Shown here one piece after another: positions 6,723-29,447 of a DNA stretch of 32,350 nt (positions are counted from its first letter, which is position 1; every line of letters begins with the position of its first letter). This stretch comes from an uncultured Burkholderiales bacterium (GTDB lineage: Bacteria; Actinomycetota; Acidimicrobiia; IMCC26256; BP-133), in assembly GCA_964502185.1 (NCBI GenBank), contig CAZCVW010000004.1, forward strand, positions 1 through 32,350. Reading direction: 5' to 3'. The position numbers and the translations under genes are program-made. The notes under the pieces were generated by a model. The model was given only the letters and a program-made list of their open reading frames with translations, did no database searches and was not told where the DNA came from.

Positions 6723-6735
6723 TTGGTCAGACCTT
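6723..6735. promoter_or_regulatory. Putative FadR/GntR-type operator, copy 1 (TTGGTCAGACCTT)
   Basis: This is one of five copies of the dyad TTGGyCwGACCAw. It lies in the divergent gap, 83 nt upstream of mutase operon 1 (ATG 6639) and 174 nt upstream of the dehydrogenase (ATG 6910). One arm is degenerate (ACCTT). Confidence 0.5.
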
Positions 6736-6909
6736 AGCGGTCCAGTGCTCGACGTCGGCGAAAGCCCATACGCAGGCTACGGGCGGCCATCGCGTCCGCG
6801 CTTCGATCTCGAAGAGCCGGACAGGGGTTGCCCTGATCAACACCCCCTCTTCCGCCGGCGCGAGCCCGCCGCTCATCCGACGACTCGACGGAAACGAGGT
6901 ACGTACGAG

Positions 6910-7812
6910 ATGCGAGCGAGCGCCAAGTCGGTTGGGCTCATCGGCCTCGGGAACATCGGCGGGGGCATGTGCAGCCGGCTCCTCGAATGTGGCTACGAGG
7001 TCTTCGGCTTCGACGTCTCGGAGGCCGCCGCGGCGGCCGCGGAGAAGGCGGGGGCGACGCTCTTGGGGTCGCCGGCCGAGGTGGCGGAAGCCACGCACGT
7101 GACCGTGACGTCCCTGCCCAACTCGGCCATTGTGTTCGAGGCGTGCACCGGCCCCAAGGGCTGGCTCGAGGGAGCCAGCCCCGGCGACACTGTCATCGAG
7201 ACCTCCACCATCGAGCCCGCCGCCATTCGACGGCTGGCTGAAGCGGCCGAGGCCAGGGGTGCTCGTGTCCTGGATGTGGCGCTGAGTGGCGAGCCTCCTC
7301 AGGCGGCCGCGGGCGAGTTGGTGTTCCAGGTCGGCGGCGACGACGAGCTCTTCGGCGAGCACCAGGCCCTCCTTGAGGCGATGTCCAAGAAGATCAACCG
7401 AACCGGCGGGATCGGCACCGCCAAGATCGTCAAGCTCGTCAACAACCTGATGTCGATCGGCAACATCGCCGTAGCGAGCGAGGCCTTCGTCCTCGGCGTG
7501 AAGTGCGGCATGGATCCGGAGCGGCTCTTCGAGATCCTTTCTGTATCCGGAGGCCGCTCCGCGCACTTCAACCACGACTTCCCCGGAGTGCTCGAAGGGA
7601 ACTACACGCCCGGGTTCAAGACGAGCCTGGCCGTCAAGGACCTGCGCCTCATCCTCGACCTGGCGTCATCCGAGGAGTACCCGACACGACTCGCCCAGGT
7701 CATCGAAGCTCTCTACTCAGAGGCCGTCGAGCGCGGCAGCGCTGATGAGCACTTCACGTCCGTGGTGAAGATCTACGAGGACCTCGTCGGGACCAAGGTC
7801 TCCCGGCCGTAG
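6910..7812 (+). CDS. NAD(P)-dependent beta-hydroxyacid dehydrogenase (3-hydroxyisobutyrate dehydrogenase family)
   Basis: It has an N-terminal Rossmann motif (VGLIGLGNIGGGM) and the family core (TSLPNS..., GGIGTAKIVKLVNNLMSIGNIAVASEAFVLG, GFKTSLAVKDLRL). The ATG at 6910 is preceded by GAGG. The upstream part of listed ORF 5656..7812 is antisense to the mutase gene and is not coding. Confidence 0.85.
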   Translation: MRASAKSVGLIGLGNIGGGMCSRLLECGYEVFGFDVSEAAAAAAEKAGATLLGSPAEVAEATHVTVTSLPNSAIVFEACTGPKGWLEGASPGDTVIETSTIEPAAIRRLAEAAEARGARVLDVALSGEPPQAAAGELVFQVGGDDELFGEHQALLEAMSKKINRTGGIGTAKIVKLVNNLMSIGNIAVASEAFVLGVKCGMDPERLFEILSVSGGRSAHFNHDFPGVLEGNYTPGFKTSLAVKDLRLILDLASSEEYPTRLAQVIEALYSEAVERGSADEHFTSVVKIYEDLVGTKVSRP

Positions 7813-8058
7813 CCGGGCGCCATCAGCAATCCAACCGTCTTGGCAATCGGACCGGGCCGGCGAACGCCCGGCTATGACCAGCAGGCGTCGGCTGGAGCCA
7901 GCCCGCCCGTGGCGACACGCCTAGAAGGCGTCAGCTGACGCGGCATCGCTGCGCAGCGACTCCCTGGAAACGCCGAGCGCGGCGCGTGTGGTGCCGAGCG
8001 CTGGGCAACGTGGCTGAAGTGAGTGGGCCATAGTTTTGATAGCTGGCCTACTTGACAT

Positions 8059-8071
8059 TTGGCCAGACCAA
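8059..8071. promoter_or_regulatory. Putative FadR/GntR-type operator, copy 2 (TTGGCCAGACCAA)
   Basis: Same dyad as the other copies, 115 nt upstream of the membrane-protein start. A consensus -35-like TTGACA (8052-8057) abuts it, so the site would sit in a promoter spacer. Confidence 0.5.
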
Positions 8072-8185
8072 ACTAATGATGCCCTCGTATTCATAGCGCC
8101 CCGATTGCGCTCAGCCCGGATTGTGGCGGGCGCGTTCCCGGCCCGGTACCAAAAGGGGGAAGGCCGGGGATCCCGGCCAAACACG

Positions 8186-9325
8186 ATGACTCAGATGGGC
8201 GAAGACGTACACGTTGAAGCGGAGGTTGGTGCCACAGCGGCGGCGGTCCCACGGTGGGGAGCGGCGACGCCACTCGTGATCACGGCTGGCATCTGGATCG
8301 TCTCGCTTCTCACATGGTGGCTACTTGCCGATCCGGACTGGAGTCCCTTTGGTGCGTCGCAGGCGGCCGTCGGCGCCCTACTGTTCTGGACCATCCTGGC
8401 GTTCATCTTCACCGGCTTCACGTTCGGCAACTGGCCGTTCAGCCGGCTTTCGCAGCCACTCGCCGGCGTCGCCCAGGTCGCGTTCGACGTGGCCTTTGCC
8501 TTCTTCGCCGTGTGGCTCTTCACGTTCGTCCTGGGAGCCTGGGACCCGACGTTCTCCCACGCCGCCCCGGGTGGTGCGGGCTTCACGGCGGCCGCCTTCG
8601 TCGTCCTCATCGGCTTCTACGCATACGCCCTCGTGGCCGCCAGTTGGGGCGGCTACCCGTTTGAAAACGTCGGCCAACCAACCGCCGGGGTGGCGCAGTT
8701 TTTCCTGGCTGCATTCATCACGCTCCTCGGCACCGTCGTCCTGATCTACCCCAACTTCAGCGCAGCGCTGGCGGCCGACGCACCCCTCGCGCTCCCGACC
8801 GCCACCGGGTGGGTCTACGAGTCGATCGTCGTCCTACTCCTCGCGGCCATGCTGTGGGACAACTGGCCTTGGGCGATGATCAAGAACCGGCATTTGCGCG
8901 CCTTGGGCGCAGTGGCGGTGAGCCTCGCCGGAGGCTACCTCCTGTTCGTCATCTTCAAGGCCATCGTGAAAGCCGTTGTACCTGAGAGCATCGAGGCCAT
9001 GGACACGTTCGCGGTGGACCTGGAGGCGGCTCAGCTCGGCGTGTGCTTCTCGCTTTGGAGCCTTACCTGGGGCCTGGTGTGGGGAGCGCCGCCCCAGTCG
9101 CTGGGCACCGTCGGAAACCGCTTGGCGCGTACCGCGATCGTGACCGTCTTGTCGGTGGCGACGTACGCGATCTTCATGAACTTCTTTGCCACCAAGGTGC
9201 TTCACTTCGCCGCGCTCGAGGACAGCTACGGCGGGTCCCCGCTCGTCTGGATGGACTGGGTGATCCTCGTGGTGCTCTGGTACGCGGTCGCCTTCGGAGG
9301 CTTCCTGTCGACCCGCCGAGCGTAG
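8186..9325 (+). CDS. Polytopic integral membrane protein of unknown family (candidate substrate transporter)
   Basis: About 10 hydrophobic segments are visible. There is a repeated motif: NWPFSRLSQPLAGVAQVAF, GYPFENVGQPTAGVAQFFL, and a weaker NWPWAMIKNRHLRALGAVAV. I chose the start at ATG 8186 (MTQMGEDV...), and the exact start is uncertain. Confidence 0.6.
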   Translation: MTQMGEDVHVEAEVGATAAAVPRWGAATPLVITAGIWIVSLLTWWLLADPDWSPFGASQAAVGALLFWTILAFIFTGFTFGNWPFSRLSQPLAGVAQVAFDVAFAFFAVWLFTFVLGAWDPTFSHAAPGGAGFTAAAFVVLIGFYAYALVAASWGGYPFENVGQPTAGVAQFFLAAFITLLGTVVLIYPNFSAALAADAPLALPTATGWVYESIVVLLLAAMLWDNWPWAMIKNRHLRALGAVAVSLAGGYLLFVIFKAIVKAVVPESIEAMDTFAVDLEAAQLGVCFSLWSLTWGLVWGAPPQSLGTVGNRLARTAIVTVLSVATYAIFMNFFATKVLHFAALEDSYGGSPLVWMDWVILVVLWYAVAFGGFLSTRRA

Positions 9326-9390
9326 GCCTGACGATTGCCGCATTTGCGGGCTTGACACCGCGGTTGCGCTGTGTGAGATTGCATCCGACT

Positions 9391-9403
9391 TTGGTCTGAC
9401 CAT
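9391..9403. promoter_or_regulatory. Putative FadR/GntR-type operator, copy 3 (TTGGTCTGACCAT)
   Basis: Same dyad, 28 nt upstream of the CoA-ligase TTG start. A TTGACA lies at 9352-9357, followed 17 nt later by GAGATT, which would place the site just downstream of a possible promoter. Confidence 0.5.
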
Positions 9404-9431: not shown

Positions 9432-10859
9432 TTGGCCTTCACGTCGCCTGAGGAGTGGCCTCCGCCGCCGAGCGGTGCCACGTCTCCTTCGGCCGAGAGC
9501 CCCTATTGGAACCGGACGGTCGAGACGATGGATCCGGCCGATCGTGAGCGACTCATCGTCTGCAAGCTCAAGGCTCAGCTGGACTACTGCTACGAGAACT
9601 CCGGGTTCTACCGGGAGAAATGGGACGCCGTCGGCGTCGATCCGGGCAAGGTCTCGTCGCTCGACGACCTTCGGCGGTTTCCGCTGCTGCGGAAGCAGGA
9701 GCTCCGGACTGAACAGGCGGAACACCCGCCGTTCGGTCGTTACCTCTGTGTCCCCCGGGAAGAGGTACTGCGGATCCACGGAACGTCGGGTACCACCGGG
9801 CGGCCCACCGCCTTCGGTGTGAGCCGGGGCGACTGGCACCGCATTGCCGCCGCTCATGCTCGGATCATGTGGGCCGCCGGCATCCGCCCGTCCGACACCA
9901 TCTTTCTCGGATCGTTCTTCGGCTTGTACTGGGGCGGTTGGGGAGCGCTCATCGGCGGCGAGCGGCTGGGCGCCACCTGCTTCCCCTTCGGCGCCGGAGT
10001 CCCCGGCCAGACCCAGCAGGCGGTGGAGTGGTTGGCCCAGATGCGGCCCACCGCCTTCTACGGCACGCCCTCCTACGCCCTCCGGATCGCCGAGGTGGCC
10101 CGGGAGGCGGGATTTGACCCGGTCGACTTTGGCATCCGCGTCCTGTTCTTCTCAGGGGAACCGGGCGCCGGCATTCCGTCCACCAAGCGATTGATCGAAA
10201 GAAGCTTCGGAGGAGCCTGCATCGACATGGGGTCCATGGCGGAGATGTCACCGTGGATGACCAACGCCGAGTGCAGCGAGCGCAGCGGGATGCACTTGTG
10301 GGACGACATCGTCTACACGGAATTGCTCGATCCCGTGACGGAGGAGCCGGTGAGTCCAGGTGAGGTGGGTGTGCCGGTCTACACGCACCTGGAACGCGAG
10401 TCCCAGCCGATGATCCGGCTGTGGTCGGGTGATCTTTCCAGGTACACGAGCGAACCGTGCGGTTGCGGGCGGACGTACCGGCGGCTTCCCGACGGTCTTT
10501 TCGGACGGGCCGATGACATGCTTGTGATCAGAGGCGAAAACGTCTATCCGGCTGCCATCGAGGAGGCGATCCGGGCGGCCGGCTGCGAGGGTGAATTCCG
10601 GGTGGAGGTCGTCCGGGAGCACGCGATGGACGAGCTGACGGTACGGGCGGAAGCGGTGGCCGGGTGCTCCGAAAGCGATCTCCAACAGGCCGTCCTCAGC
10701 CAGCTCAAGAAGAAGCTCGGTCTCAGGGCCGCGGTGGAGATCGTGCGCGCCGGATCGCTGGAGCGAACAGAGTTCAAGTCTCGGCGTATTTCTGATCGCC
10801 GTGACCTGAGCCAGGAGCTCAAGACCCTGCAGGAAGCCTCGAATGGGACGTCGGCTTGA
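9432..10859 (+). CDS. Phenylacetate-CoA ligase-like (PaaK family) AMP-forming acid-CoA ligase
   Basis: It is collinear with PaaK as I remember it: ETMDPADRERL..., FPLLRKQELR, RIHGTSGTTGRPTAF, GWGALIGGERLGATCFPFG, FYGTPSYALRIAE, FFSGEP, GRADDMLVIRGENVYPAAIEE. The TTG start at 9432 has GAGGGGG 4 nt upstream. Confidence 0.85.
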   Translation: MAFTSPEEWPPPPSGATSPSAESPYWNRTVETMDPADRERLIVCKLKAQLDYCYENSGFYREKWDAVGVDPGKVSSLDDLRRFPLLRKQELRTEQAEHPPFGRYLCVPREEVLRIHGTSGTTGRPTAFGVSRGDWHRIAAAHARIMWAAGIRPSDTIFLGSFFGLYWGGWGALIGGERLGATCFPFGAGVPGQTQQAVEWLAQMRPTAFYGTPSYALRIAEVAREAGFDPVDFGIRVLFFSGEPGAGIPSTKRLIERSFGGACIDMGSMAEMSPWMTNAECSERSGMHLWDDIVYTELLDPVTEEPVSPGEVGVPVYTHLERESQPMIRLWSGDLSRYTSEPCGCGRTYRRLPDGLFGRADDMLVIRGENVYPAAIEEAIRAAGCEGEFRVEVVREHAMDELTVRAEAVAGCSESDLQQAVLSQLKKKLGLRAAVEIVRAGSLERTEFKSRRISDRRDLSQELKTLQEASNGTSA

Positions 10860-10892
10860 GCTTTCCACCGCGCCTGAGCTTTCCACCGCGCC
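10857..10892. repeat. Perfect 18-bp tandem duplication TGAGCTTTCCACCGCGCC x2, beginning with the CoA-ligase stop codon
   Basis: By direct reading, 10857-10874 equals 10875-10892. Each unit begins with an in-frame TGA. Confidence 0.9.
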
Positions 10893-10902
10893 ATGGCGGT
10901 GG
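10883..10902 (+). terminator. Candidate stem-loop after the CoA-ligase gene (CCACCGC-GCCATG-GCGGTGG)
   Basis: It has a 7-bp GC-rich stem and a 6-nt loop, formed partly from the second repeat unit. There is no U-tract, so it is weak as an intrinsic terminator. Confidence 0.3.
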
Positions 10903-11162
10903 GCCGGCCTGTTGGGCGATCGAGGAGGTGACCACATAGAGCATCAGGCGTCAGTGGTTCAACGGCGGGAGTTATAACCTAGAGCGGGAAGATCCAGGAG
11001 TACATTCTGCTGGTGCAGGGCGGCACCACGACATTTCTCGCGCCGGGCGCACGATCGCTTCGCCGTGTGCAGGATCTGCCATGAGACGAATTGCGGATCG
11101 CCGGAACGCCGGGCGGATCCGCGGCGTGGAAGTAGACGATTTTCTGAGGAGGAATGTCTGCG

Positions 11163-12410
11163 ATGAACAAACTCGAACTGATGCCCCTTGAAGAGACTGT
11201 CAAGTGGGCAAAGCACAATTCTTGGTATGTGGCTGACCTGCTGGCGAGGAGGGGCACGGAGGGCGAAAACCCCCTGATCCCGAGGGCCGAGTACGAGATG
11301 CTGTCCTTCCAGACCACCTTCCTGCAGCACCCATGGCTGTACCTCTGGCTAGGGGAGAAGGTGGGGATGGAGGGAATAAGAGCGACCTGCAGCTCAGGCC
11401 ACCGAGAGTTCGGGATCAAGACCATTACCCCGTGCAACATACAGTGGGGCTGTGGGATCGCCTTGTTCGGCAGGTTGTTTCTCATCGATGGCGGCCTTAT
11501 CGGGCCCAACGACTACATCGATAACCTCAGGATCATCTACAGCTTCTGGAGGACCGTGTTCGAGGGCTATATGCGGGAAGGGAAGCCGGCGGTCATGGAC
11601 GTGGGGTACGCCCTGCAAGTGCTCGACCAGGACGTGGTGGAGGACCTGAGTCTGCAGGTGGAACCTCTAGACGACCCGGAGCTGCGGGCCACAGTGGGCC
11701 AGTTCAACTCCTTAATCCAGCTCATGGGCTTCCTGGACCACTATGACTGCCGGCTGGGCCTGGGCGACACCGGCCCCTATGAGGTGGGCGACAGGCTGAT
11801 CCTGGTCAGGGACTGCTTCGTGAACGAGAAGTCGTTCCCATGGACCTTCGTGGTCGGGGACCTGCCGTTCTCCTACAGCCTGGTGTTGACCTACGACAAG
11901 AAGAAGATGATGCGAGACCGCAAGAGCGGCAAGATGAAGATGTTCTCCATATACAACACCGGCACCCTGTTTTGCGACCCCCCTGATTACGAGGATCAGG
12001 CGTTGCTGGAGGTCGCGGTGTACATGAGAGACGAGGATTATCCCAATGGCAAGACAACCAGGATACCGCTGAGCGAGCTGCAGACCCACATCCAGAAACT
12101 GGAGGCGGCCGTGGAGCGGATGTACATGTACCTGGCCATGAAGCCCAAGTTCGACAAGATACTGGAGGGTAATTGGGTCTACGTGGCCGCTTCGCTTCCC
12201 TATGTCCGCGCCCATGACCTCGAGGCGGAGGCGGCCGCGATGGGGTTCTGGGATATGGACCTTAGGAGCATGGAATACTTGCTCAAGGGCTATACCAAGG
12301 CTGGGGAAGTCCAACGGAACGCGACGGCTGGTCTGGGGGCTCCTCCTCCGCAGATGCCCGGGTTCCGCTGCAGGGGGACCAAGGACGGTAGGTACGAGAT
12401 AGTACGTTAA
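11163..12410 (+). CDS. Hypothetical protein, no family recognised (low-GC island gene 1)
   Basis: This is a long ORF in a compositionally distinct stretch. It uses AGG/AGA/ATA codons (CTG GCG AGG AGG; GGA ATA AGA) that are rare in the flanks. GAGGAGGA at 11146-11153 abuts the first ATG (11154) but is well spaced for the second ATG at 11163. Confidence 0.6.
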   Translation: MNKLELMPLEETVKWAKHNSWYVADLLARRGTEGENPLIPRAEYEMLSFQTTFLQHPWLYLWLGEKVGMEGIRATCSSGHREFGIKTITPCNIQWGCGIALFGRLFLIDGGLIGPNDYIDNLRIIYSFWRTVFEGYMREGKPAVMDVGYALQVLDQDVVEDLSLQVEPLDDPELRATVGQFNSLIQLMGFLDHYDCRLGLGDTGPYEVGDRLILVRDCFVNEKSFPWTFVVGDLPFSYSLVLTYDKKKMMRDRKSGKMKMFSIYNTGTLFCDPPDYEDQALLEVAVYMRDEDYPNGKTTRIPLSELQTHIQKLEAAVERMYMYLAMKPKFDKILEGNWVYVAASLPYVRAHDLEAEAAAMGFWDMDLRSMEYLLKGYTKAGEVQRNATAGLGAPPPQMPGFRCRGTKDGRYEIVR

Positions 12411-12450
12411 TGCAAAAGGCCAGCAAGTGGCTAAACGGAAAGGGGCGACA

Positions 12451-12522
12451 ATGGCTGAGCCAGGAATCAAGGAAGAAGGCGAGACAATGGCTGGGCTAAG
12501 AGTCAAGGAAGAAAGCGAGAAG
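12451..12522 (+). repeat. Imperfect 36-bp tandem repeat (2 units, 29/36 identical) at the 5' end of island gene 2
   Basis: Hand alignment of atggctgagccaggaatcaaggaagaaggcgagaca against atggctgggctaagagtcaaggaagaaagcgagaag. Each unit begins with ATG. Confidence 0.8.
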
Positions 12523-12945
12523 AGGTTTCAGTGGTCCCACGAGGAGTGGGAGGTTGACCTGAACCTCAAGACGGCCGATGAGTTTGAGGCGTGGCTCAAC
12601 AAGGAGACCAAGTACTTCATCAGGGCCAACGCCGGCTTCTATGGCCAGTGCGTCATCGTGTGCATAGAGTCTAAGGATGATGAGTTCCTGTGCTACGTGG
12701 ACTACTACAAGGGTAAGTTCCCGCCCTGGTACACCGCCGAGGAGCTGGCGGTGCTGGACATAGACAAGCTTCGCATGGAGCCCGCCGAGATTAAGTGGGA
12801 TAACTGGGAGTGGACGACCTTAAGGAAAGATGACTTTCCGCTGCGTCTGAAGGAGGTCATTTTCCTGTACCCGCCCCAGCAGCCGACCATACCGTGGCTC
12901 TTCCTGTCGCCAGAGGAGAGCGGCTTGGCGACGATGGAGATATAG
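12451..12945 (+). CDS. Hypothetical acidic Trp-rich protein, no family recognised (low-GC island gene 2)
   Basis: The ORF has AAAGGGG 5 nt before ATG 12451. GTG 12427 and ATG 12487 are alternative starts. The N-terminus is an imperfect 36-nt tandem repeat (MAEPGIKEEGET / MAGLRVKEESEK). Confidence 0.55.
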   Translation: MAEPGIKEEGETMAGLRVKEESEKRFQWSHEEWEVDLNLKTADEFEAWLNKETKYFIRANAGFYGQCVIVCIESKDDEFLCYVDYYKGKFPPWYTAEELAVLDIDKLRMEPAEIKWDNWEWTTLRKDDFPLRLKEVIFLYPPQQPTIPWLFLSPEESGLATMEI

Positions 12946-12966
12946 GAAGGAAGAGGCGGAGCACAA

Positions 12967-13446
12967 ATGGATAACGACATCGCAGGGTACAGGTATATCG
13001 GCCAGGGCTACAGTGTGGTGCCCGTGGGGAAGCACGAGGGTATTGCCATGAACGTCACGACGCCACAGGAAATGATAAAGCTGATGTCCAACCCGCAGAA
13101 AATCAAGGAGACCGTGGTGATCACGCCCGGCGGCACCACCACCTTTGTGGCCCCGCTTCTTTACAAGAAGCCGGCCGGCATCGTGACCTATGCCGGGACG
13201 CCGGAGTCTCATTTGGGAATCGTAGGGCGGAACTTTGGTATCGCCATCGTCATGACGCTCAAGCTGGAAGGGATGGACTCCATCCCCGATGGCACACCCG
13301 TGCTGCTCGACTGTGAGGGCAAGCTAGGGCGCGTTTACGTAAAGGCAGAGGCGGGCGCCGAGTCGCAGCAGTCAGCGGATGGGTCGGTCCAGTCGCAGCA
13401 GTCAGCGGATGGGTCGGTCCTGGGGGATGGGTCGGTCCTCGGGTAG
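12967..13446 (+). CDS. Free-standing PEP-utilising-enzyme mobile (phosphohistidine swivel) domain protein
   Basis: GQGYSVVPVGKHEGIAMNV...ETVVITPGGTTTFVAPLLYKKPAGIVTYAGTPESHLGIVGRNFGIAIVMT...DGTPVLLDCEGKLGRVYV follows the swivel-domain pattern (G..G.a.G......ilV...t.P......a.GivT..Gg.tSH.aivaR..giP.v). The conserved His sits in TPESH. There is no ATP-grasp or acceptor domain. The C-terminal tail is repetitive. Confidence 0.8.
   Translation: MDNDIAGYRYIGQGYSVVPVGKHEGIAMNVTTPQEMIKLMSNPQKIKETVVITPGGTTTFVAPLLYKKPAGIVTYAGTPESHLGIVGRNFGIAIVMTLKLEGMDSIPDGTPVLLDCEGKLGRVYVKAEAGAESQQSADGSVQSQQSADGSVLGDGSVLG
13361..13438 (+). repeat. 30-bp perfect tandem repeat x2 plus a partial third unit, in frame at the 3' end of the swivel-domain gene
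   Basis: 13361-13390 equals 13391-13420 (agtcgcagcagtcagcggatgggtcggtcc). ggatgggtcggtcc recurs at 13425-13438. The repeat encodes SQQSADGSV SQQSADGSV LGDGSVLG. Confidence 0.9.
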
Positions 13447-13538
13447 GAATTGCAATGGGGGAAAAGGCTAATGCTGTCTAGTGCGTTGGGGTGATGTGGG
13501 GCGACCTAGCGCGCCGGACAACGTGTTGCGGGGTGACT

Positions 13539-14105
13539 ATGCTGGATGAACATGCATTTTTGGTGTTGAACGCGCTATACCTCAAAAAGATGGCTTCAGT
13601 CGGAGACTTGGCTGAAATTTCGGGCCTGCCTGCCGACCAAGTACGGGCAATGGTGAGCGGCTTCGTGGAGCGAGGTTGGTTGCTGGATATGGGCGGCGAG
13701 CTTCTCATCCAGCCCGAGGGAATGGCGCAGGTGCAAGGCTACTATCGCGAAACCTATTCGGACCTTTCGCAAAGCGAAGAGATGCCGCGATGGCATGCGC
13801 GGTTCGAGCCCATCAACAGTCAATTCATCAAGCTTGTCACCGACTGGCAGCAAACCGGAGGCGATCCCAGAGTCCAGGACCGCGTAATTGCGACGGTCGA
13901 GCGGCTCGTCAAGTTAATCGGCGAGATTACGCAGCTGGTGCCACGGTACGCCGGCTACATTCGCCGGTTCGAACGAAGTGTGACCACAGTCGACCAAGGG
14001 AATCCTGACTTCGTTTGCACTCCGACCGTCGATTCTTTGCACAACATTTGGTTCGAGTTCCACGAGGACATCCTCATGATTCTAGGGAAGGAGCGGACGG
14101 AGTGA
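13539..14105 (+). CDS. Winged-helix-like N-terminal domain protein of unknown family, paralogue A (low-GC copy); partner of the PPDK-like gene
   Basis: It is a paralogue of 14382..15002, sharing RWHARFE/RWMARFE and the near-identical end DSLHNIWFEFHEDILMILGKERTE / DSVHNIWFELHEDILVILGKERLE. The N-terminus LVLNALYLKKMASVGDLAEISGLPADQVRAMVSGFVERGWL looks like a wHTH. I chose the start at ATG 13539 by alignment with the paralogue. Its stop is overlapped by the GTG of the truncated PPDK fragment (GTGA). Confidence 0.65.
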   Translation: MLDEHAFLVLNALYLKKMASVGDLAEISGLPADQVRAMVSGFVERGWLLDMGGELLIQPEGMAQVQGYYRETYSDLSQSEEMPRWHARFEPINSQFIKLVTDWQQTGGDPRVQDRVIATVERLVKLIGEITQLVPRYAGYIRRFERSVTTVDQGNPDFVCTPTVDSLHNIWFEFHEDILMILGKERTE

Positions 14106-14356: not shown

Positions 14357-14381
14357 CGACCGAGACGCGGGGGGGAATGAC

Positions 14382-21675: not shown

Positions 21676-21720
21676 TCCGGGGAAGGGGAGGCGATGACGT
21701 AGAATCGTGGTTGAAAGGTC

Positions 21721-22542
21721 TTGCCAATACAGAAAGGCTCGGCTGTGGAGGAACTCGCAGGGCCGTTTGCTCCGGTCAAGCGCCGACGTGCCTTCGAGGA
21801 CATCATCGTCCAGATCGAGAACGCCATTCATGAAGGGCGTCTCACGGTGGGCGACCGGCTCCCGCCCGAGCGTGAGCTCGCCGAGATCTTCCAGGTCTCC
21901 CGGGCGTCGGTGCGCGAGGCGCTGCGAGTCCTCGAGGCGTTCGGGGTCCTGAGCGCGCGCCGGGGAACCGGACCGGACTCCGGTTCGATCGTCTCGGCGC
22001 AGAACGAGAGCCCGCTCTCGGGTCTCCTCCGGCTGTACGCCTCACTCTTGAAGATGCCGCTTCTGGACCTCCTCGAGGTGCGCGAGGCGCTCGAGACGCT
22101 CACCGCGCGCCGGGCGGCCGGGCGGGCCGGCCCCGAGGACCTCGAGCGTCTCGCTGCCATCATCGAAAGCATGCGCAACTGCCGCGAGCCCGAGGAGTTC
22201 CTGACCCTGGACACGGAGTTCCACCTCACCCTGGCTCGGGCGTCGGGGAACTCGGTCGCTCCCCTCATCATGGGGGCCCTCCGGGACGCGATTGCCCAAC
22301 AGATGCTGCGGGCCTTCAAGGCGCTCGAGGAGTCGGGGAACTGGGTGTCGGAACGCACCTGGCTGGTGCGTGAACATGCCCAGCTGATGGAGACCATCGC
22401 GTCGAGAGACCCGGACGCCGCCGCCCACGCCTTCAGTCAGCACGTGCACGACTTCTACAAGCGGGTCCTCCAGGACCACGAGGTCGCCCCCCAGCAACCG
22501 GCGCGGGCCGCCGCCCCGCAAAAACGCCGCCGGCTCGCCTGA
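21721..22542 (+). CDS. GntR-family transcriptional regulator, FadR subfamily (FCD C-terminal domain)
   Basis: The N-terminal wHTH is AFEDIIVQIENAIHEGRLTVGDRLPPERELAEIFQVSRASVREALRVLEAFGVLSARRGTG. The all-helical C-terminal domain carries an FCD-like pattern (LLEVREALE..., FHLTLARASGN, EHAQLMETI). The start is uncertain: TTG 21721, or GTG 21745 with GAAAGG upstream. Confidence 0.85.
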   Translation: MPIQKGSAVEELAGPFAPVKRRRAFEDIIVQIENAIHEGRLTVGDRLPPERELAEIFQVSRASVREALRVLEAFGVLSARRGTGPDSGSIVSAQNESPLSGLLRLYASLLKMPLLDLLEVREALETLTARRAAGRAGPEDLERLAAIIESMRNCREPEEFLTLDTEFHLTLARASGNSVAPLIMGALRDAIAQQMLRAFKALEESGNWVSERTWLVREHAQLMETIASRDPDAAAHAFSQHVHDFYKRVLQDHEVAPQQPARAAAPQKRRRLA

Positions 22543-22565: not shown

Positions 22566-23615
22566 TCAGGGCCGGAGCTGCTCCTCGGCCAGCAGTCCGG
22601 CCAGCACCGCCTCGGCGAGCGCTAGGAACTGGTCGACACTGGCCACGCCTCCCGCCAGTTCGCCCACCAGTACCCGCAGCGGAGGCCGGTAGGGCACGAG
22701 GTAGTCGAAGACGAGGTCGCCGTCTGCCCGTCCGAGCATCATGACGCCGGCGTACTCGGCCACGTGCGAGACGAACTCCGCCGAGCGGGCCTCGTCGCGG
22801 ACGGAGGCGTAGGCCTCGTAGCACGCACGCGCCTCGGTGAGGAGCGCCACCCGCCAGTGCGGGCGGGCGAAGCCGAGAAGGACGAAGTGGGCCAGGATGA
22901 TGCCGACGTCGAAGGCGGGATGGCCCCACTGGGCACACTCGAAATCGAGCTTGGTGATGCCGCCGTCGTGGACGAGCACGTTCTTCGGGGTGATATCCGC
23001 GTCGACCAGCACCCGTGCCTCGTCCCGGTTGCGGCGTAGGGCCGTCTCGATCAGCGGGGCGAGGTCCGGGTTAGCCGACGCTGCGCTGCGGACGCTCTGC
23101 TCCCGGAGAGCGAAGCCGGGATTGAAACCGAAGTCCCGGGCGATCTCCGGGGACTCGAGCGTGATGGCGTGGAGATGGCCGACATAGTCGCCCAGTCGCC
23201 GGCCGGTGCCGGGATGGAACCGCCCGGCCAGCAGCTCTGTGTCGTAGAGCACGGCGTCATCGGGCGCCGGCGTCATCACCGACACGTAGTTCTCGGGGTC
23301 GTCGTCCAGGATCGTCGGGATGGGGGCAAGGGATCCGAGGAGCCTCTTGATGGCCTTCATGGCCGCCACTTCCATGAGGGCGCGCCGGATGTCGGCCTGC
23401 AGGACGGTGCGCCGAGCGGCCTCGAACGACTGCTTCACGATGTAGACCCGGCCGCCGCCCTCCACCCGGAAGACGTTGTTCACGTAGCCGCCCGAGAGCG
23501 TTCGCACGACGGCGTCACCGCTGTGCTCCAAAAGGCCGCGGCCCAGCAGGTACCCGACGATGTTCCTCTCGTCAAGCTCGATCAGCGGAGAGGCGGGCCG
23601 CTGCGAGGTCACCAT
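22566..23615 (-). CDS. Aminoglycoside-phosphotransferase-fold small-molecule kinase (methylthioribose-kinase-like)
   Basis: It has SGGYVNNVFRV (nucleotide loop), VKQS (Lys), VLVDADITPKNVLV (catalytic loop) and LDFECAQWGHPAFDVG (metal-binding segment). Its start lies 16 nt downstream of the HcmA-like stop, with a GAAAGG RBS. Confidence 0.8.
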   Translation of the reverse strand: MVTSQRPASPLIELDERNIVGYLLGRGLLEHSGDAVVRTLSGGYVNNVFRVEGGGRVYIVKQSFEAARRTVLQADIRRALMEVAAMKAIKRLLGSLAPIPTILDDDPENYVSVMTPAPDDAVLYDTELLAGRFHPGTGRRLGDYVGHLHAITLESPEIARDFGFNPGFALREQSVRSAASANPDLAPLIETALRRNRDEARVLVDADITPKNVLVHDGGITKLDFECAQWGHPAFDVGIILAHFVLLGFARPHWRVALLTEARACYEAYASVRDEARSAEFVSHVAEYAGVMMLGRADGDLVFDYLVPYRPPLRVLVGELAGGVASVDQFLALAEAVLAGLLAEEQLRP

Positions 23616-23630
23616 GTCCCGGCCTTTCTT

Positions 23631-25336
<1,706 letters not shown>

Positions 25337-25340
<4 letters not shown>

Positions 25341-26311
25341 GGGCGTCCTTTCGATCTGCCGCTCAACTCGCGCTCGAGGAGCGCGTGCGCGGCCGTCCAT
25401 GGGTCCGTCGTGCGCCGGCACAGCGCCTCGACCGCGGTCTCGAAGGCCGATCCGGGAACGGGCCGGTCGAGGCGTTCGTGGACGAGGGCGGTGAGCAGCG
25501 TCTTCAGCCGGTGGCGTGCCATCAACCGCCGGCGCTCCTCCATGCTGCCGGAAGCGAGCAGCCAGTCGTAATGCTGGTCAAGGGCCTCGGCCAATTCGGT
25601 CACGCCCTGACCGCTCTCGGCGCACGTCGGAAGCACCGGAGCGAGCCATCCATTTACGGCGCTGAAGCCGAGCATGGACCTCAGCTCGGCCATCGTGCGG
25701 TCAGCACCCTCCCGATCGGCCTTGTTCACGACATGCACATCAGCTGTCTCCAGCAGGCCCGCCTTGAGCGCCTGGACATCGTCTCCCAGCCCGGGGGCGG
25801 AAACGACGACGACGCTATGAGCCGCCTGCGCGATCTCAACCTCGTCTTGGCCCACGCCCACCGTCTCCACCAAGACGACGTCCTTGCCGGCCGCGTCGAG
25901 CACGGCGACCGCGTCGGCGGTAGCACGGGCGATCCCGCCGAGCGCGCCACGAGTGGCCATGGAGCGAATGAACACCTCGGGGTCGTCCCACAGCGCCTGC
26001 ATCCGAATCCGGTCGCCGAGGACCGACCCGCCCGAGTAGGGACTGGACGGATCGACCGCCACGATCCCGAGGGTCAAGCCCCGCCGGCGGAGGTCAACGC
26101 CGAGGGCTGCGACCAGGGTGCTCTTGCCGGCGCCCGCCGGGCCGGTGACGCCGATCACCCGTGCCCGGCCGCCCGCTCGGTAGAGCTCGGCCAGGTCGTC
26201 CGCCCCGTCGAGCGCTCCCCGTTCGACGCGGGAGATCATCCGGGCGATGGATGCAACCTCCCCGGCGAGGACGCCTCGGGCCAGGTCGGTGTCCGCCCCG
26301 GTGGCCGTCAT
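25337..26311 (-). CDS. meaB: MeaB/ArgK-type G-protein chaperone for B12-dependent mutases
   Basis: It has a P-loop (GVTGPAGAGKSTLV), AVDPSSPYSGGSVLGDRIRM, ETVGVGQ and VNKAD. It is translationally coupled on both sides by ATGA overlaps. Confidence 0.9.
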
Positions 26312-26742
26312 CCGGCCTGCGTCGCCTGCCGGTCGCGGACGAGACGCTCTACGGTGGCCACGATGGTCGCCGGAGGTGTGTCCTGCCCGAGAATGTCCGC
26401 CACGCCCATCGCCTTCAGGGCGGCCACGTCTTCATCCGGCATGACCCCACCGGCGACGAGGACCTTGTCGTCGACTCCGTGCTGCCGCATGAGCTCCAGG
26501 AGACGCGGCAGGAGCGTCATGTGCGCGCCCGAGAGCAGGCTGACGCCAATGGCATCGACATCTTCTTGCACGGCGGAGGCGATGACCTGCTCGGGGGTCC
26601 GGTGGAGGCCAGTGTAAATGACCTCCATGCCGCCGTCACGCAGGGCCCGGGCGACCACCTTCACGCCGCGGTCGTGGCCGTCGAGGCCCACCTTGGCCAC
26701 CAAGACCCGGATCGGGCCCTGCGCACCGTCGACCGGCGGCAT
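26308..26742 (-). CDS. hcmB: Acyl-CoA mutase small subunit, cobalamin-binding domain (operon 2, HcmB-like)
   Basis: The 144-aa product MPPVDGAQGPIRVLVAKVGLDGHDRGVKVVARALRDGGMEVIYTG... contains DxHxxG. A GGGAGA RBS lies before ATG 26742. The rest of the listed ORF (to 27075) is not protein-like. Confidence 0.9.
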   Translation of the reverse strand: MPPVDGAQGPIRVLVAKVGLDGHDRGVKVVARALRDGGMEVIYTGLHRTPEQVIASAVQEDVDAIGVSLLSGAHMTLLPRLLELMRQHGVDDKVLVAGGVMPDEDVAALKAMGVADILGQDTPPATIVATVERLVRDRQATQAG

Positions 26743-26763: not shown

Positions 26764-26776
26764 TTGGTCAGACCAA
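26764..26776. promoter_or_regulatory. Putative FadR/GntR-type operator, copy 4 (TTGGTCAGACCAA; perfect 6+1+6 dyad)
   Basis: This is a perfect palindrome around a central A, 21 nt upstream of the hcmB-like ATG. Confidence 0.6.
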
Positions 26777-26836
26777 GGTACTCCAGGACCCAGCGGAAGG
26801 CAACGTCGGCCGACCGCCATCGGGTTGAATCCCCGG

Positions 26837-27046: not shown

Positions 27047-28294
27047 TCATCCTCCGACGACGAGCGCGGTGGCAAACATCAGGGCGAACCCCATGGCGGC
27101 GCCGACGAGAAGCAGCCCCGGGTCCGTCGTCCGGCGGCGGGCGTAGCGGGCGAGCTCATCGATCACCTCAGCGATGGCGCCGACGCCGACAGCGAGAAAC
27201 AGCGTCCCGAGCAGCACCGAGAAGGCGAGTCCGCCCAGGACAGTTCCGGCCACCGTGGGGAGGCCCGCGACCAGACCCAGGCCGATCAGGTGCCACCATC
27301 TCGGTAGACAGGGCATGGTCGGGGAGGCGATGGCGATTCCCTCGGTGGTGTTGTGAAGGGCGAAGCCGACGACGAGTGCGGTCCCGAGGGCGATCTCTCC
27401 CCGGGCGTGCGCCGAACCGACCGCCAAGCCCTCCCCGAAATTGTGCAGCCCGATCCCCACGGCGATGAGGTAGGCAAGGGACAGGGGGGACGGTATGGCC
27501 TCCCCCGGTCCGCCTCCGACAGCCCCCCTTGGTCCACCGCGGTGACGGCGTCGGCTCAGATAGGCAAGCCCGGCATAGGTGCCAACCGCCCCGGCGAACA
27601 CGAGGGCCGGCCCCTGGAAGACGGAGGCGAGCTCGCTGGCCAGTTCGAGGGACTCGCCGAGGGCGTCGACAGCCAGGAACATGAGCAGTCCGCCTGTGAA
27701 CCCGAGCAGGAACCGCAGGCCGCGCCGACCGAGGCGGGCCAGGGCCGGTAGGAACAGCAGGCCGATGAAGACGGGGAGGACGCCCATGTAGGTGCCGAGA
27801 AGGACGTAGCCGATCACGGTCCGGCCGCTGGCCGTGGGGGTCTCGGCAGCGGCCTCGACGTCGTGGACGTACGTCATACCCGTCGAGTCGACCACGGCGA
27901 TGGACAGCGGCTCCCCCGCCACCCATGGATAGGGGATGCGAAGGCGGGCGGACTCCAGCCGGTCGAGGTTCCGGCCCGGCTCCACGGTGAACACCCGATA
28001 GGCCTCGTCGATCATTACCTGGCTCACGTCGAGCGACGTCGGGCCGGTGTTGCGGATTGAGATCGTGATCACGTCCGGGGCCAAGGTGACCTGCTCGAAG
28101 GCGAGTTCGGGGATGGCGGCCGGCTGTGGGCGGAGCAATCTCTCGACCCCGGCTTGGCGCATGAGCACCAGCGCGGCCAGCGTTCCCACGATCGCCACTA
28201 CGAGGCCGGCGACCCAACCCCAGCCGGCCCGCGCTGCAGGCTGTGTCACCATTGCCGCTTCGGCGCCGTCTCCGACCGGCTCGTGCAGGTCCAC
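27047..28294 (-). CDS. ZIP-family divalent-metal transporter with an extra N-terminal extracytoplasmic domain
   Basis: ZIP signatures are present (GIGLHNFGEGLAVG, GFALHNTTEGIAI) along with multiple TM segments. I chose GTG 28294 as the start because GGAGGGG lies 8 nt upstream. ATG 28252 is an alternative. The listed 683-aa ORF continues as a shadow frame over the oxidase gene. Confidence 0.8.
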   Translation of the reverse strand: MDLHEPVGDGAEAAMVTQPAARAGWGWVAGLVVAIVGTLAALVLMRQAGVERLLRPQPAAIPELAFEQVTLAPDVITISIRNTGPTSLDVSQVMIDEAYRVFTVEPGRNLDRLESARLRIPYPWVAGEPLSIAVVDSTGMTYVHDVEAAAETPTASGRTVIGYVLLGTYMGVLPVFIGLLFLPALARLGRRGLRFLLGFTGGLLMFLAVDALGESLELASELASVFQGPALVFAGAVGTYAGLAYLSRRRHRGGPRGAVGGGPGEAIPSPLSLAYLIAVGIGLHNFGEGLAVGSAHARGEIALGTALVVGFALHNTTEGIAIASPTMPCLPRWWHLIGLGLVAGLPTVAGTVLGGLAFSVLLGTLFLAVGVGAIAEVIDELARYARRRTTDPGLLLVGAAMGFALMFATALVVGG

Positions 28295-28353
28295 CTCAGG
28301 TACCCCTCCGGGGACGGCGCGCTGGCGGGGCCAGACGACGCGGGCCGGGAGGT

Positions 28354-29346
28354 TCACGTGCTCACCTGGAACATGCCCATCCAGCCCAGCTCGGAGAACT
28401 CGGTCTGATGGGCGTGGAACATGTAGGTGCCAGGGAACTTGTACGTGAGCTCGAGGACGGCCCGCTCGACCTGGGCGAGGACGGTGACGTCGGTGAAGTT
28501 GTTGGGGGTGAGGGACGTCCCGGTGCGGTACTCGGAGAAGAAGTTGGCGTGGGTATGCAGTGAGTTGAGCGGATCGAACTCGGTCAGGTTCACCAGGTAG
28601 ATCCGCACCAGCTCCCCGACCCGCAGCGGGATCGGGTGGCGCACGTAATGGAAGGCCACCGTGTTGACAGCATAGATCTCGTTCTCGCCGTCGAGGTTGG
28701 TGTCGAACCCGTTCATCGTCATGACGAGCTCCCGGGCCGGCGGTCGCGGCTCGGGCGGGTCGATGATGAACACGCCGTAGAGGCCCTTGTGGATGTGACG
28801 GCGTAGCGGGGGCACGTGGCAGTGGTAGAGGTGAAGCCCGAACGGCTCGGCGTCGAACTCGTAGGTGAACTCCCCGCCGGGCTGCACGACCTCGAAGACG
28901 CCGTCCATCCCGGCGGCGTGGATCCCGTGGAAGTGGATGGTGTGGGGGTGGGTGCCGGCGTTTACGAAGTGGATCTGCAGGCGATCGCCCTGCGTGCAGC
29001 GCAGCGTCGGGCCGGGGACGCGGCCGTTGTAGGTCCAGGCGGGGAACATGATGCCCGGGGCGACCTCGATCTCCTGGTCCACGGCGTAGAGCTTCCACGT
29101 CCGCAGCGTCCGCCCGTCGGCCAGGGTCGAGACGGTGCCGTAGTCGAAGTCGGTGAGGTAGGCGGAAGGGTCGAAGCGGGAGAGGTCCACCTCACCCACC
29201 ACCATGTTCCCGCCATGATCAGCGGCGTGACTGTCATGGATTGCGGCCGTCCGTGCGTTCGCCCCATCGCGCCCGACCACCGAGGCGACGCCGGCAGCAG
29301 CTAGGGCCCCGGCTCCACGAAGCAGTTCGCGGCGGGTGAATTTCAA
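28354..29346 (-). CDS. Tat-secreted two-domain multicopper oxidase (cupredoxin fold, nitrite-reductase-like architecture)
   Basis: Copper motifs occur in the order HTIHFHG, LYHCHV, LHTH, FHAH. With a TTG start at 29346 (GGAGGA just upstream) the N-terminus is MKFTRRELLRGAGALAAAGVASV, a classic twin-arginine signal. The listed ORF extends to TTG 29424. Confidence 0.8.
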   Translation of the reverse strand: MKFTRRELLRGAGALAAAGVASVVGRDGANARTAAIHDSHAADHGGNMVVGEVDLSRFDPSAYLTDFDYGTVSTLADGRTLRTWKLYAVDQEIEVAPGIMFPAWTYNGRVPGPTLRCTQGDRLQIHFVNAGTHPHTIHFHGIHAAGMDGVFEVVQPGGEFTYEFDAEPFGLHLYHCHVPPLRRHIHKGLYGVFIIDPPEPRPPARELVMTMNGFDTNLDGENEIYAVNTVAFHYVRHPIPLRVGELVRIYLVNLTEFDPLNSLHTHANFFSEYRTGTSLTPNNFTDVTVLAQVERAVLELTYKFPGTYMFHAHQTEFSELGWMGMFQVST

Positions 29347-29434
29347 CGGTCCTCCGGGGCGCCGTGTCGCCGCGGGGCCGGGACGGCTCTCGAAAAGAGC
29401 CAAACCGAGGCCCGCTGGCACCAAGACGGATACA

Positions 29435-29447
29435 TTGGCCAGACCAT
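29435..29447. promoter_or_regulatory. Putative FadR/GntR-type operator, copy 5 (TTGGCCAGACCAT)
   Basis: Same dyad, in the divergent gap between the oxidase (start 29346, minus) and ThDP enzyme 2 (ATG 29510, plus). The flank GACCATGTTACCA resembles the reverse complement of the copy-1 flank (GACCAAGTTACCA). Confidence 0.5.

Follow-up and report, generated by a model that had tools for sequence, protein, structure and literature searches.

The 32,350-nucleotide stretch of contig CAZCVW010000004.1 analysed here (assembly GCA_964502185.1; hereafter the window) encodes enzymes for the activation, isomerisation, and cleavage of 2-hydroxyisobutyric acid (2-HIBA) and carries, in front of several of its genes, copies of a 13-bp palindromic dyad, TTGGYCWGACCWW. 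This arrangement raises the question of which protein reads the repeat and which genes are controlled through it. Comparison with related loci makes it very likely that the dyads are operators of an LldR-like regulator of the FadR subfamily of GntR proteins, encoded within the window itself at 21745-22542.

A repeated palindrome in intergenic gaps

The repetition of the palindrome is real. An exact search of the window for TTGGYCWGACCWW returned matches at 6723, 8059, 9391, 26764, and 29435, the same coordinates and sequences, with a perfect copy at 26764, that an earlier note on this DNA had listed. Dinucleotide-preserving shuffles of the window (n = 100) gave an expected count of 0.00 against the 5 observed, in keeping with that note's estimate of far less than one occurrence by chance. 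Its count of five was short by one weak copy: a search relaxed to two mismatches added 21715-21727, together with a few GC-rich background matches inside genes.

The same sites were recovered with a matrix built from other DNA. Related, syntenic actinobacterial contigs were found by scanning with the regulator protein, their regulators being 57-89% identical to that of the window; in the labels used below, L001-L003 are genome contigs, L016-L024 metagenome contigs, and L051-L060 homologue look-ups. Among the last, L051 belongs to the cultured Pseudonocardia sulfidoxydans and has two dyads and a regulator of 74% identity. A symmetrised weight matrix made from 20 dyads, all from contigs other than the window, was then run on the window, and its top six matches were 26764, 29435, 9391, 8059, 6723, and 21715; the next, at 9.1 bits, was the best match in coding DNA. 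The six sites are listed with their bit scores.

Operator 1: 6723..6735, TTGGTCAGACCTT, in the 270 bp that separate the mutase-1/B12/2-hydroxyacyl-CoA lyase (HACL) operon (minus strand) from the divergent dehydrogenase gene (plus strand), 22.3 bits
Operator 2: 8059..8071, TTGGCCAGACCAA, upstream of the membrane-protein gene, 23.5 bits
Operator 3: 9391..9403, TTGGTCTGACCAT, upstream of the 2-hydroxyisobutyrate-CoA ligase (HCL) gene, 27.1 bits
Operator 4: 26764..26776, TTGGTCAGACCAA, a perfect palindrome matched on both strands, 29.7 bits
Operator 5: 29435..29447, TTGGCCAGACCAT, between the multicopper oxidase gene (minus strand) and the gene for thiamine diphosphate (ThDP) enzyme 2 (plus strand), 27.5 bits
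Operator 6, weak: 21715..21727, minus strand, AAGGTCTTGCCAA, one mismatch, 17 nt upstream of the regulator start, 13.8 bits

Because the window is 67.6% G+C, its gene map was drawn from codon-position GC, Pfam, NCBIfam, and the N-termini of orthologues. Under this map all six dyads, the five exact copies and the weak sixth, are intergenic, which upholds the earlier description of the five as non-coding and upstream of starts. Operator 1 stands 83 nt from the mutase-1 ATG (6639, minus strand) and 174 nt from the dehydrogenase ATG (6910), operator 2 lies 114 nt from the membrane-protein ATG (8186), operator 3 lies 28 nt from the HCL TTG (9432), and operator 4 is 21 nt from the ATG of the B12 small subunit (26742, minus strand). 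Operator 5 is 62 nt from the ATG of ThDP enzyme 2 (29510) and 10 nt from the oxidase TTG (29424, minus strand), and operator 6 begins 9 nt downstream of a TAGAAT box (21700..21705). With a non-coding share of 9.1%, or ~7.6% if the Rieske-ferredoxin open reading frame at 18350-18850 is counted as a gene, the probability that all five exact dyads fall in non-coding DNA by chance is ~3-6e-6. Nor is the motif equally common in the coding DNA of seven loci with gene calls (149 kb, 9.3% non-coding), where all 20 matches to WWGGYCNGRCCWW were intergenic (binomial 2e-21); a similar frequency inside coding regions genome-wide was the outcome that the earlier note had held would undo its claim.

In form, the dyads are of the operator type of the FadR subfamily, TNGTNNNACNA or TGGTN3ACCA, the former being the subfamily consensus quoted in PMC11472048 and PMC2602784. 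The TGGT-N3-ACC(A/T) arrangement is present in three of the five strong sites, those at 8059 and 29435 have a TGGC left half with an intact GACCA right half, and the sixth site is a degenerate copy.

An LldR-like regulator encoded among the dyads

The regulator gene is described by the following line.

21745-22542, plus strand: regulator of 265 aa with a GntR winged helix-turn-helix (wHTH) and an FCD domain, LldR-like

A gene of this kind had been placed at 21721-22542, and the GntR/FCD gene is indeed there; the N-termini of orthologues put its start at the GTG at 21745, not at the TTG at 21721. Both domains score well above their Pfam cutoffs, the GntR wHTH (PF00392) with E 8e-18 and 64.3 bits against 27, and FCD (PF07729) with E 4.4e-25 and 88.9 bits against 24.3. 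Among solved structures, LldR of Corynebacterium glutamicum (PDB 2DI3) is by far the nearest to the regulator, with a match (E 8.6e-30) that runs its full length. The DNA-contact residues Arg35, Arg45, Arg49, and Gly66 of FadR, which are conserved in LldR (PMC2602784), have kept equivalents in the regulator: PERE, VSRA, VREALR, and G-T-G align with LldR, so that ER, SR, REALR, and the glycine of the wing agree with it where that paper places the FadR equivalents. In the FCD domain, which binds Zn in the LldR-like group defined by Gao et al. 2008, the LldR ligands Asp144, His148, His196, and His218 are D/H/H/H in the regulator as well, and Arg102 is kept, and the alignment shows three changes in the LldR pocket (His174 to Gln, Thr175 to Met, and Tyr222 to Phe).

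None of the named families claims the protein outright. Its best NCBIfam scores, for NanR (118.8 bits), LldR (114.6), PdhR (107.9), and GlcC (99.4), are all far below cutoffs of 260-330; the LldR equivalog NF007741 in particular stops at 114.6 bits against 311, which sets the regulator apart from LldR orthologues, and no lldD or Lactate_perm gene was found in the window among the Pfam and NCBIfam calls. FadR_C (PF07840) falls just under its cutoff (23.4 against 23.6 bits), and the FadR equivalogs are far under theirs (NF003444, 48.4 against 189 bits; TIGR02812, 43.3 against 249), so that FadR itself is likewise not indicated. With FadR scores under the cutoffs and a metal-binding FCD, an acyl-CoA effector is therefore unlikely and a free 2-hydroxy acid likelier. 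By these sequence features, the regulator belongs to the FadR subfamily in the sense of Rigali and to its metal-binding, small-carboxylate LldR-like group, not to the acyl-CoA-sensing FadR proteins.

The DNA site of LldR provides a direct comparison. LldR has been footprinted with DNase I, and its binding measured by isothermal titration calorimetry (Kd 81 nM), on 5'-TtgTGGTCTGACCAtgA-3', a site from which LldR represses and which occupies positions -4 to +13 at the cgl2917-lldD promoter (PMC2602784). The 11-bp core of that operator, TGGTCTGACCA, is identical to window positions 9392-9402 and 26765-26775.

Candidate promoters and conservation at each site

The placement of the dyads relative to candidate promoters was examined next to their conservation in the related contigs. 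A sigma-70 consensus scan, which is ill-suited to actinobacterial promoters, picked up only the promoter at 8052-8080. The candidates are as follows.

6739..6744 and 6720..6715, minus strand: mutase-1/HACL promoter, -35 TGGACC and -10 TACCAT, with the dyad inside the 18-nt spacer
6696..6724, plus strand: dehydrogenase promoter, -35 TTGCCT at 6696-6701, 17 nt, -10 TAACTT at 6719-6724
8052..8080, plus strand: membrane-protein promoter, -35 TTGACA at 8052-8057, operator 2 in the spacer, -10 AATGAT/TAATGA at ~8074-8080
9352..9379, plus strand: HCL promoter, -35 TTGACA at 9352-9357, 16 nt, -10 TGAGAT at 9374-9379, operator 3 beginning 11 nt downstream
26775..26803, minus strand: hcmB2-meaB-hcmA2-APH promoter, -35 TTGCCT at 26803..26798, 17 nt, -10 TACCTT at 26780..26775, overlapping the dyad
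29431..29436, plus strand: ThDP enzyme 2 -10 TACATT, read from the sequence, overlapping operator 5
21700..21705, plus strand: internal regulator-gene promoter, -10 TAGAAT, at a position kept in relatives

At operator 1, the arrangement TGGACC-N3-dyad-N2-TA(G/C)CAT is kept in the window, L058, L059, and L060, and L023 has the TGGACC-N3-dyad part, its -10 falling beyond the stretch examined. The dyad AAGGTCTGACCAA stands in the dehydrogenase/lyase gap of L058 and L059, AAGGTCCGACCAA occupies the same place in L023, and AAGGTCTGACCAA lies in L060 between the dehydrogenase gene and a mutase-1/B12/lyase operon arranged as in the window. On the dehydrogenase side, the final two T of the -10 are the opening two bases of operator 1; this -10-overlapping layout (class A) also precedes the dehydrogenase gene in L051, L054, and L003, with a dyad upstream of that gene in L051 and L054 also. 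On this layout, operator 1 would serve two overlapping divergent promoters.

The membrane-protein promoter, TTGACA-17-AATGAT, scored 10 of 12 in the promoter scan. Its layout, TTGACAT-dyad-NCTAAKGAT, recurs in L019 and survives as a relic in L023; the dyad and its adjoining flanks are kept upstream of the membrane-protein gene in L058 and L059, and the orthologues of this gene in L019, L003, L058, and L059 come after a dyad. The HCL layout (TTGACA, 16-18 nt, a TGAGAT-like hexamer, and a dyad ~10 nt downstream) recurs before the HCL genes of L001 and L023 and, in L019, before the gene for a protein resembling pyruvate phosphate dikinase (PPDK); a dyad is found upstream of HCL in L001, L023, L051, L053, L056/L059, L058, and L060. 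For the hcmB operon, TTG(C/T)NN-17/18-TAnnTT joined to GGTCTGACC is kept in six loci, the last two T of the -10 being the first two bases of the dyad, and a dyad at the position of operator 4 precedes an hcmB-like gene in L001, L002/L053, L016, L019, L023, and L056. Two of the dyads had been described as sitting next to TTGACA hexamers. The hexamer at 8052-8057 is a plausible -35, but the one beside 26764 was rejected as such, as it is on the minus strand, 3' of the dyad in gene orientation, and is not conserved in orthologues. Upstream of ThDP enzyme 2, no convincing -35 was seen for the candidate promoter, and a dyad precedes the orthologue of this gene in L019 and L054.

The weak operator 6 has a conserved setting as well. 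The -10 position reads TAGAAT, TACAAT, TAGACT, TAGAGT, TACAAC, or TACAGT in 12 of the 13 sequences compared, L003 being the exception, and the order (T/C)A(G/C)A(A/C)T, 3-9 nt, AAGGTCTKGCCAA, ribosome-binding site, and start is kept in the window, L001, L003, and L016-L022, so that the weak variant stands before the regulator gene in at least 10 contigs. A conserved weak copy before a regulator gene is a classic signature of negative autoregulation, and the sequence suggests that the regulator is probably autoregulated; operator 6 is the strongest single argument tying the motif to the regulator gene at 21745-22542. Across the locus, the dyads lie over the -10, between the -35 and the -10, or a short way 3' of the -10, and repression is therefore indicated.

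Proposed regulon, mechanism, and effector

In the mechanism that we propose, a dimer would sit on each 13-bp palindrome (consensus TTGGTCWGACCAA, essential core GGTC-N-GACC) and would block RNA polymerase binding, open-complex formation, or promoter clearance. The units predicted to be repressed in this way are listed below.

22566..26742, minus strand: unit (i), the hcmB-meaB-hcmA-APH operon
9432..10859, plus strand: unit (ii), the HCL gene, whose product matches 6HDW (2-hydroxyisobutyryl-CoA synthetase) with E 5.7e-153
8186..9325, plus strand: unit (iii), the gene for an integral membrane protein, a candidate transporter without a Pfam family
6910..7812, plus strand: unit (iv), the gene for a dehydrogenase of the 3-hydroxyisobutyrate-dehydrogenase family (Pfam NAD_binding_2 and NAD_binding_11; NCBIfam)
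2728..6639, minus strand: unit (iv) also, through the one shared dyad, the divergent mutase-1/B12/HACL operon, found as the same operon in L060
29510-31087, plus strand: unit (v), a probable target, the gene for ThDP enzyme 2, the second ThDP enzyme, of PRK05858 type
21745-22542, plus strand: unit (vi), the regulator's own gene, which would be repressed more weakly, the weak operator giving negative feedback

That a FadR-subfamily repressor would co-ordinate both mutase operons, uptake, and activation had been suggested before, and the sequence and comparative evidence supports it. The oxidase-ZIP unit, which had been counted among the regulated genes, finds no comparative support, its genes (27047-29424) being absent from all related loci; the pair seems to have been inserted between the hcmB operon and the gene for ThDP enzyme 2.

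The repressor would let go of the DNA once a small 2-hydroxy carboxylate occupied the FCD metal site; free 2-hydroxyisobutyrate (2-methyl-lactate) is the likeliest candidate. Between them, the target genes encode HCL for the activation of 2-HIBA, HcmAB with MeaB for its isomerisation, and a 2-hydroxyacyl-CoA lyase for cleavage or synthesis. In Actinomycetospora chiangmaiensis, 2-HIBA induces the lyase-HCL cluster 29- to 39-fold (PMC7176365), which shows that clusters of this kind respond to the acid; free 2-HIBA is therefore proposed as the effector from the published induction and the target pathway. The binding and the sign of regulation are likewise predictions, and for free 2-HIBA as the effector we see about an even chance, its CoA ester or another 2-hydroxy acid being possible. 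The earlier wording, an acyl-CoA- or acid-responsive repressor, is thus narrowed to its second half, where the LldR-like metal FCD makes the free acid likelier and the FadR_C and FadR scores make the acyl-CoA unlikely. A bolder extension is that the regulator is a dedicated 2-HIBA sensor, a single repressor co-inducing both fates of 2-hydroxyisobutyryl-CoA, the B12 mutase and the ThDP lyase routes, along with the lyase-linked second mutase and, through the dyads before MdpJ-like Rieske oxygenase and PPDK-like/phosphatase genes of relatives, tying the highly conserved central unk418 module of the window to tertiary-alcohol and 2-HIBA metabolism, which we hold only tentatively and consider rather doubtful. 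If true, the unk418/unk172/PEP-swivel/PPDK-like module (PEP, phosphoenolpyruvate) would constitute a new ATP- or phosphoryl-dependent step in this metabolism, and the regulon would serve as a guide to unknown chemistry.

Alternative explanations for the dyads

The dyad co-occurs with a close orthologue of the regulator in every sizeable related contig, and dyad-bearing orthologous promoters were found in L001, L002, L016, L019, L023, L051, L053, L054, L056, L058, L059, and L060. The window also encodes a GAF/PucR protein (1-2709) and MarR-like proteins (13491-14105 and 14253-15002), PucR occurs in L023, L054, L058, and L059 and MarR-like proteins in most related loci, and MarR dimers also bind palindromes, all of which could be taken to favour one of these as the binder. 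For DISCRIMINATING against the other local regulators, the megaplasmid of M. petroleiphilum PM1 (L050) was used as a natural control. It keeps the unk418/unk172/PEP-swivel/MarR-like module (90, 77, 72, and 46% identity) and has a PucR-like protein (39%), hcmB-hcl-meaB-hcmA, a ThDP enzyme, and a tyrosine phosphatase, but its GntR protein belongs to a different FadR-subfamily branch (30% identity), and no dyad was found within the 21.6 kb of the PM1 locus searched. Since PM1 retains PucR and MarR-like proteins with another GntR and without the dyad, the dyad follows the regulator of the window; the GntR protein is the only component swapped, and PucR/GAF and MarR-like proteins were rejected as binders mainly on these grounds. 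The reverse case is seen in L003 and L055, where the regulator and dyads occur and no homologue of the PucR or MarR-like proteins lies within 10 kb. The motif is an exact fit to the FadR-subfamily consensus TNGTNNNACNA, and the MarR_2 match is under the Pfam threshold (20.1 bits against 27), so we regard a PucR or MarR-like binder as highly improbable. A second alternative keeps the regulator and changes its sign. FadR itself activates fabA and fabB, and C. glutamicum LldR reportedly has a positive effect on ldhA, but at each conserved promoter the dyad overlaps or follows the inferred -10 or fills the spacer and at none does it lie upstream of the -35, which makes activation or a dual action at some promoters distinctly unlikely. 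That the repeats are no protein sites at all, and reflect chance recurrence, duplicated promoter segments, or a hairpin or terminator, draws on their palindromic form only and has a negligible chance of being right: shuffles expect none, and the sites are kept among contigs with 57-89% identical regulators while their flanks diverge. Duplicated segments were discarded in view of the differing flanks and three unrelated promoter layouts, and a terminator, hairpin, or RNA element in view of a 5- to 6-bp stem, a 1- to 3-nt loop, the lack of a T-run, a position 5' of genes, and no Rfam match.

The remaining alternative is that the dyads are occupied in vivo by a FadR/LldR-type paralogue encoded elsewhere, for example a lactate or global carbon regulator, with the local protein minor or sharing the sites. 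Many FCD regulators are typical of high-GC actinobacteria. Perfect or near-perfect dyads stand near distant LldR-like genes (33-52% identity) in unrelated contexts (L040 144-156; L026 2090-2102; L057 1673 and 8005). These and several further points weigh against assigning the dyads to the local regulator or against the details of its proposed action. A Conexibacter homologue (52% identity) and the 33-36% homologues on L026 and L040 share the core TGGTCWGACCA with C. glutamicum LldR, which shows that the dyad specificity is a property of a broad LldR-like clade, with cross-talk between paralogues possible. The dyad counts cover only the window and the related contigs, and in L053 the automatic HCL start (363-1886) was moved from 363 to 430 as over-extended, the original call making one dyad coding. 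Furthermore, the actinobacterial promoter hexamers were deduced from conservation, the effector is argued from the pathway and from likeness to lactate, pyruvate, and glycolate sensors, and the A. chiangmaiensis lyase-HCL locus was not among the 120 matches listed in the lyase homologue search, so that the link to the published induction is indirect. Against a paralogue stand the tracking of the close orthologue by the dyad in every sizeable related contig, the conserved weak copy in the regulator's own promoter, and L055, where the gene of a regulator with 57% identity opens the operon regulator-lactate permease-hcmB-hcl-meaB-hcmA, directly behind TTGACA-17 nt-TAAGGTCCGACCTTA. A paralogue as the main occupant is accordingly unlikely, though it is the least remote of these alternatives, and binding by the regulator encoded at 21745-22542 is preferred.

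Relation to known systems and significance

The system resembles that of LldR in its GntR wHTH with a Zn-binding FCD and its operator core TGGTCTGACCA; LldR represses from a site overlapping the transcription start and senses a small 2-hydroxy acid, as is predicted here. It differs in its targets, which here are a set of 2-HIBA-CoA ligase, mutase, and lyase genes without lldD or lactate permease, in having six operators within one 23-kb locus compared with two LldR-bound regions reported in C. glutamicum (PMC2602784), and in the presumed effector, 2-HIBA here and lactate for LldR. E. coli FadR shares the wHTH and the TGGT-N3-ACCA half-site logic, in a 17-bp pseudopalindrome at fad/fab operators, but has an acyl-CoA-binding FadR_C and no metal site, and PdhR, GlcC, and NanR of E. 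coli, which respond to pyruvate, glycolate, and sialic acid, share the architecture and the sensing of small carboxylates, whereas their operators and regulons differ. That this is a conventional local catabolic repressor regulon of a known type, with an unsurprising mechanism, is well supported.

According to Rohwerder et al. 2020 (PMC7176365), hcl/hcm clusters usually come with a GntR gene, and there, as in ibc cluster 2 of Mycolicibacterium sp. ELW1 (PMC13188929), a GntR/FCD gene lies beside HCL, HcmAB, and MeaB/MeaH, often together with a ThDP lyase. The window likewise has HCL, HcmA/HcmB, MeaB, and an adjacent GntR gene. The ELW1 plasmid pELW1-1 (L049) encodes a 39%-identical FCD regulator and carries TGGTN3ACCA dyads in five intergenic gaps (5775, 9015, 16127, 16221, and 18082) with other central and flanking bases, for example ATGGTCTAACCAC, which probably represent a parallel regulon in a cultured isobutene degrader. 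Full-text literature searches found no study of the operator, regulon, or effector of an hcl/hcm-linked GntR protein, the papers only listing the gene, and no 2-HIBA-responsive transcription factor was found in the searchable literature.

The analysis thus gives a testable operator and regulon for the GntR/FadR gene of clusters for the degradation of 2-HIBA, of methyl tert-butyl ether and tert-butyl alcohol, and of isobutene. The predicted repressor/operator pair (TTGGTCWGACCAA) could serve as a biosensor for 2-hydroxyisobutyrate, a building-block chemical, fuel-oxygenate metabolite, and donor for lysine 2-hydroxyisobutyrylation. Regulon membership also places uncharacterised genes in one physiological response, those of the membrane protein, the APH-like kinase, and ThDP enzyme 2 in the window and those of Rieske oxygenases and PPDK-like proteins in relatives.

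Gene content of the window

The other genes of the window, and the single genes of the target operons, are listed here.

1-2709, plus strand: regulator with GAF and PucR-HTH (helix-turn-helix) domains, 5' end cut
4530-2728, minus strand: actinobacterial 2-hydroxyacyl-CoA lyase (HACL), NF058623 744 bits against a cutoff of 600
~4951-4541, minus strand: B12 small subunit
6639-4996, minus strand: HcmA-like mutase large subunit (mutase 1), 4R3U E 1.3e-163
11154-12410, plus strand: unk418, unannotated
12427-12945, plus strand: unk172, unannotated
12967-13446, plus strand: PEP-utiliser swivel-domain protein
13491-14105 and 14253-15002, plus strand: two paralogous, weakly MarR-like proteins
14999-17539, plus strand: PPDK-like protein
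17577-18353, plus strand: DUF455 protein
18350-18850, plus strand: Rieske-type ferredoxin
18854-20368, plus strand: double His_Phos protein
20581-21675, plus strand: Ldh_2 dehydrogenase
23615-22566, minus strand: APH-family kinase
25421-23631, minus strand: HcmA orthologue, 4R3U E 1.2e-244, RQI and Asp117 kept
26311-25337, minus strand: MeaB-type chaperone (Pfam)
26742-26308, minus strand: B12 small subunit, hcmB-like (Pfam B12-binding)
~28195-27047, minus strand: ZIP-like membrane protein
29424-28354, minus strand: multicopper oxidase
32150-31104, minus strand: tyrosine phosphatase

The Ile90/Asp117 mutase signature and the roles of its residues are reportedly those described by Kurteva-Yaneva in 2015. 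Mutase 1 is ~50% identical to HcmA and has RQV for RQI, with Val at the Ile90 position, and keeps Asp117. Its placement in one operon with the lyase, in the window (2728-6639) and in L060 (7929-11731), combines the lyase and mutase routes and recalls the acetone plus formyl-CoA route proposed for Desulfococcus biacutus. The multicopper oxidase carries a twin-arginine signal, FTRRELLRGAG, and the ZIP-like transporter has an extra N-terminal domain. The Rieske ferredoxin (166 aa, CPH...CxxH), 67% identical in L001, overlaps the DUF455 stop by 4 nt, which suggests that the diiron-oxygenase-like DUF455 protein and the ferredoxin form a two-component oxygenase.

The central unk418 module and its leader

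It had been suggested that the central genes may be read through from the promoter at 9391. The 294-nt gap between HCL and unk418 (10860-11153) contains a GC hairpin, CCACCGCGCCATGGCGGTGG, directly after HCL, followed by two conserved blocks, elements common to L002, L019, L023, L056, and L058, and no dyad or Rfam match was found in this gap. In L019, the leader blocks precede unk418 though HCL is not upstream, and the PPDK-like gene has a dyad of its own; a dyad also precedes PPDK-like and phosphatase genes in related genomes. Because of the conserved hairpin and leader, the central genes need no read-through, and the unk418 module is no less likely to be controlled separately than to be transcribed from the 9391 promoter. 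The gap may be a separate promoter and leader bound by another regulator, perhaps a PucR-like or MarR-like one.

As a protein, unk418 (418 aa) is 90% identical to PM1 WP_011831855, compared with only 50-65% for hcmA and hcl, and is the best conserved of the cluster. Neither it nor unk172 (172 aa) has a Pfam or NCBIfam family, the 128 relatives of unk418 that were found are all annotated as hypothetical, and its AlphaFold (AF2) model (pLDDT 85.5, pTM 0.86) gave no significant fold match in the PDB. The module (11154-13446 and 13491-17539) also includes a PPDK-like protein lacking the PEP/pyruvate domain, a stand-alone swivel domain, and the MarR-like paralogues.

Further genes in the related loci

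Several phosphoryl-transfer genes recur with the cluster. The APH-family kinase follows hcmA in the window, L001, L002/L053, L016, L019, L023, L054, and L056 (relatives at least 73% identical, where captured) and does not follow it in L055 or PM1, and the double His_Phos (18854-20368, plus strand) and Y_phosphatase3 (31104-32150, minus strand) proteins are also conserved members. The chemistry of these kinases and phosphatases has no place in the known 2-HIBA pathway.

A Rieske oxygenase (LigXa_C-like) with a PDR-type reductase is encoded in L019 (17124-19653), L002 (15232-17715), L053 (15226-17646), L054 (10907-12572), and L003 (4589-7038). The pair resembles the MdpJ/MdpK tert-butyl-alcohol monooxygenase of PM1, and the window is without these genes. 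A dyad lies immediately upstream of the pair in L019, L002, L053, and L054. In L003, the pair follows the membrane-protein gene, and a variant dyad, GAGGTCTGACCAC (2763), lies ~600 nt upstream of the latter.

Genes for bacterial microcompartment (BMC) shell proteins lie beside the PucR/GAF regulator or the cluster in L058 (16312-19856), L059 (16343-19893), L003 (2376-2720), L053 (19985-20618), and L054 (1090-1461). BMC domains occur in all five of these loci, EutN/CcmL in L053, L058, and L059, and a CsoS1D-like protein only in L058 and L059. An aldehyde dehydrogenase accompanies the BMC genes in L053, L058, and L059, and an MreB/FtsA-like protein is present in L058/L059. These BMC genes may represent an aldehyde-handling microcompartment tied to the pathway.

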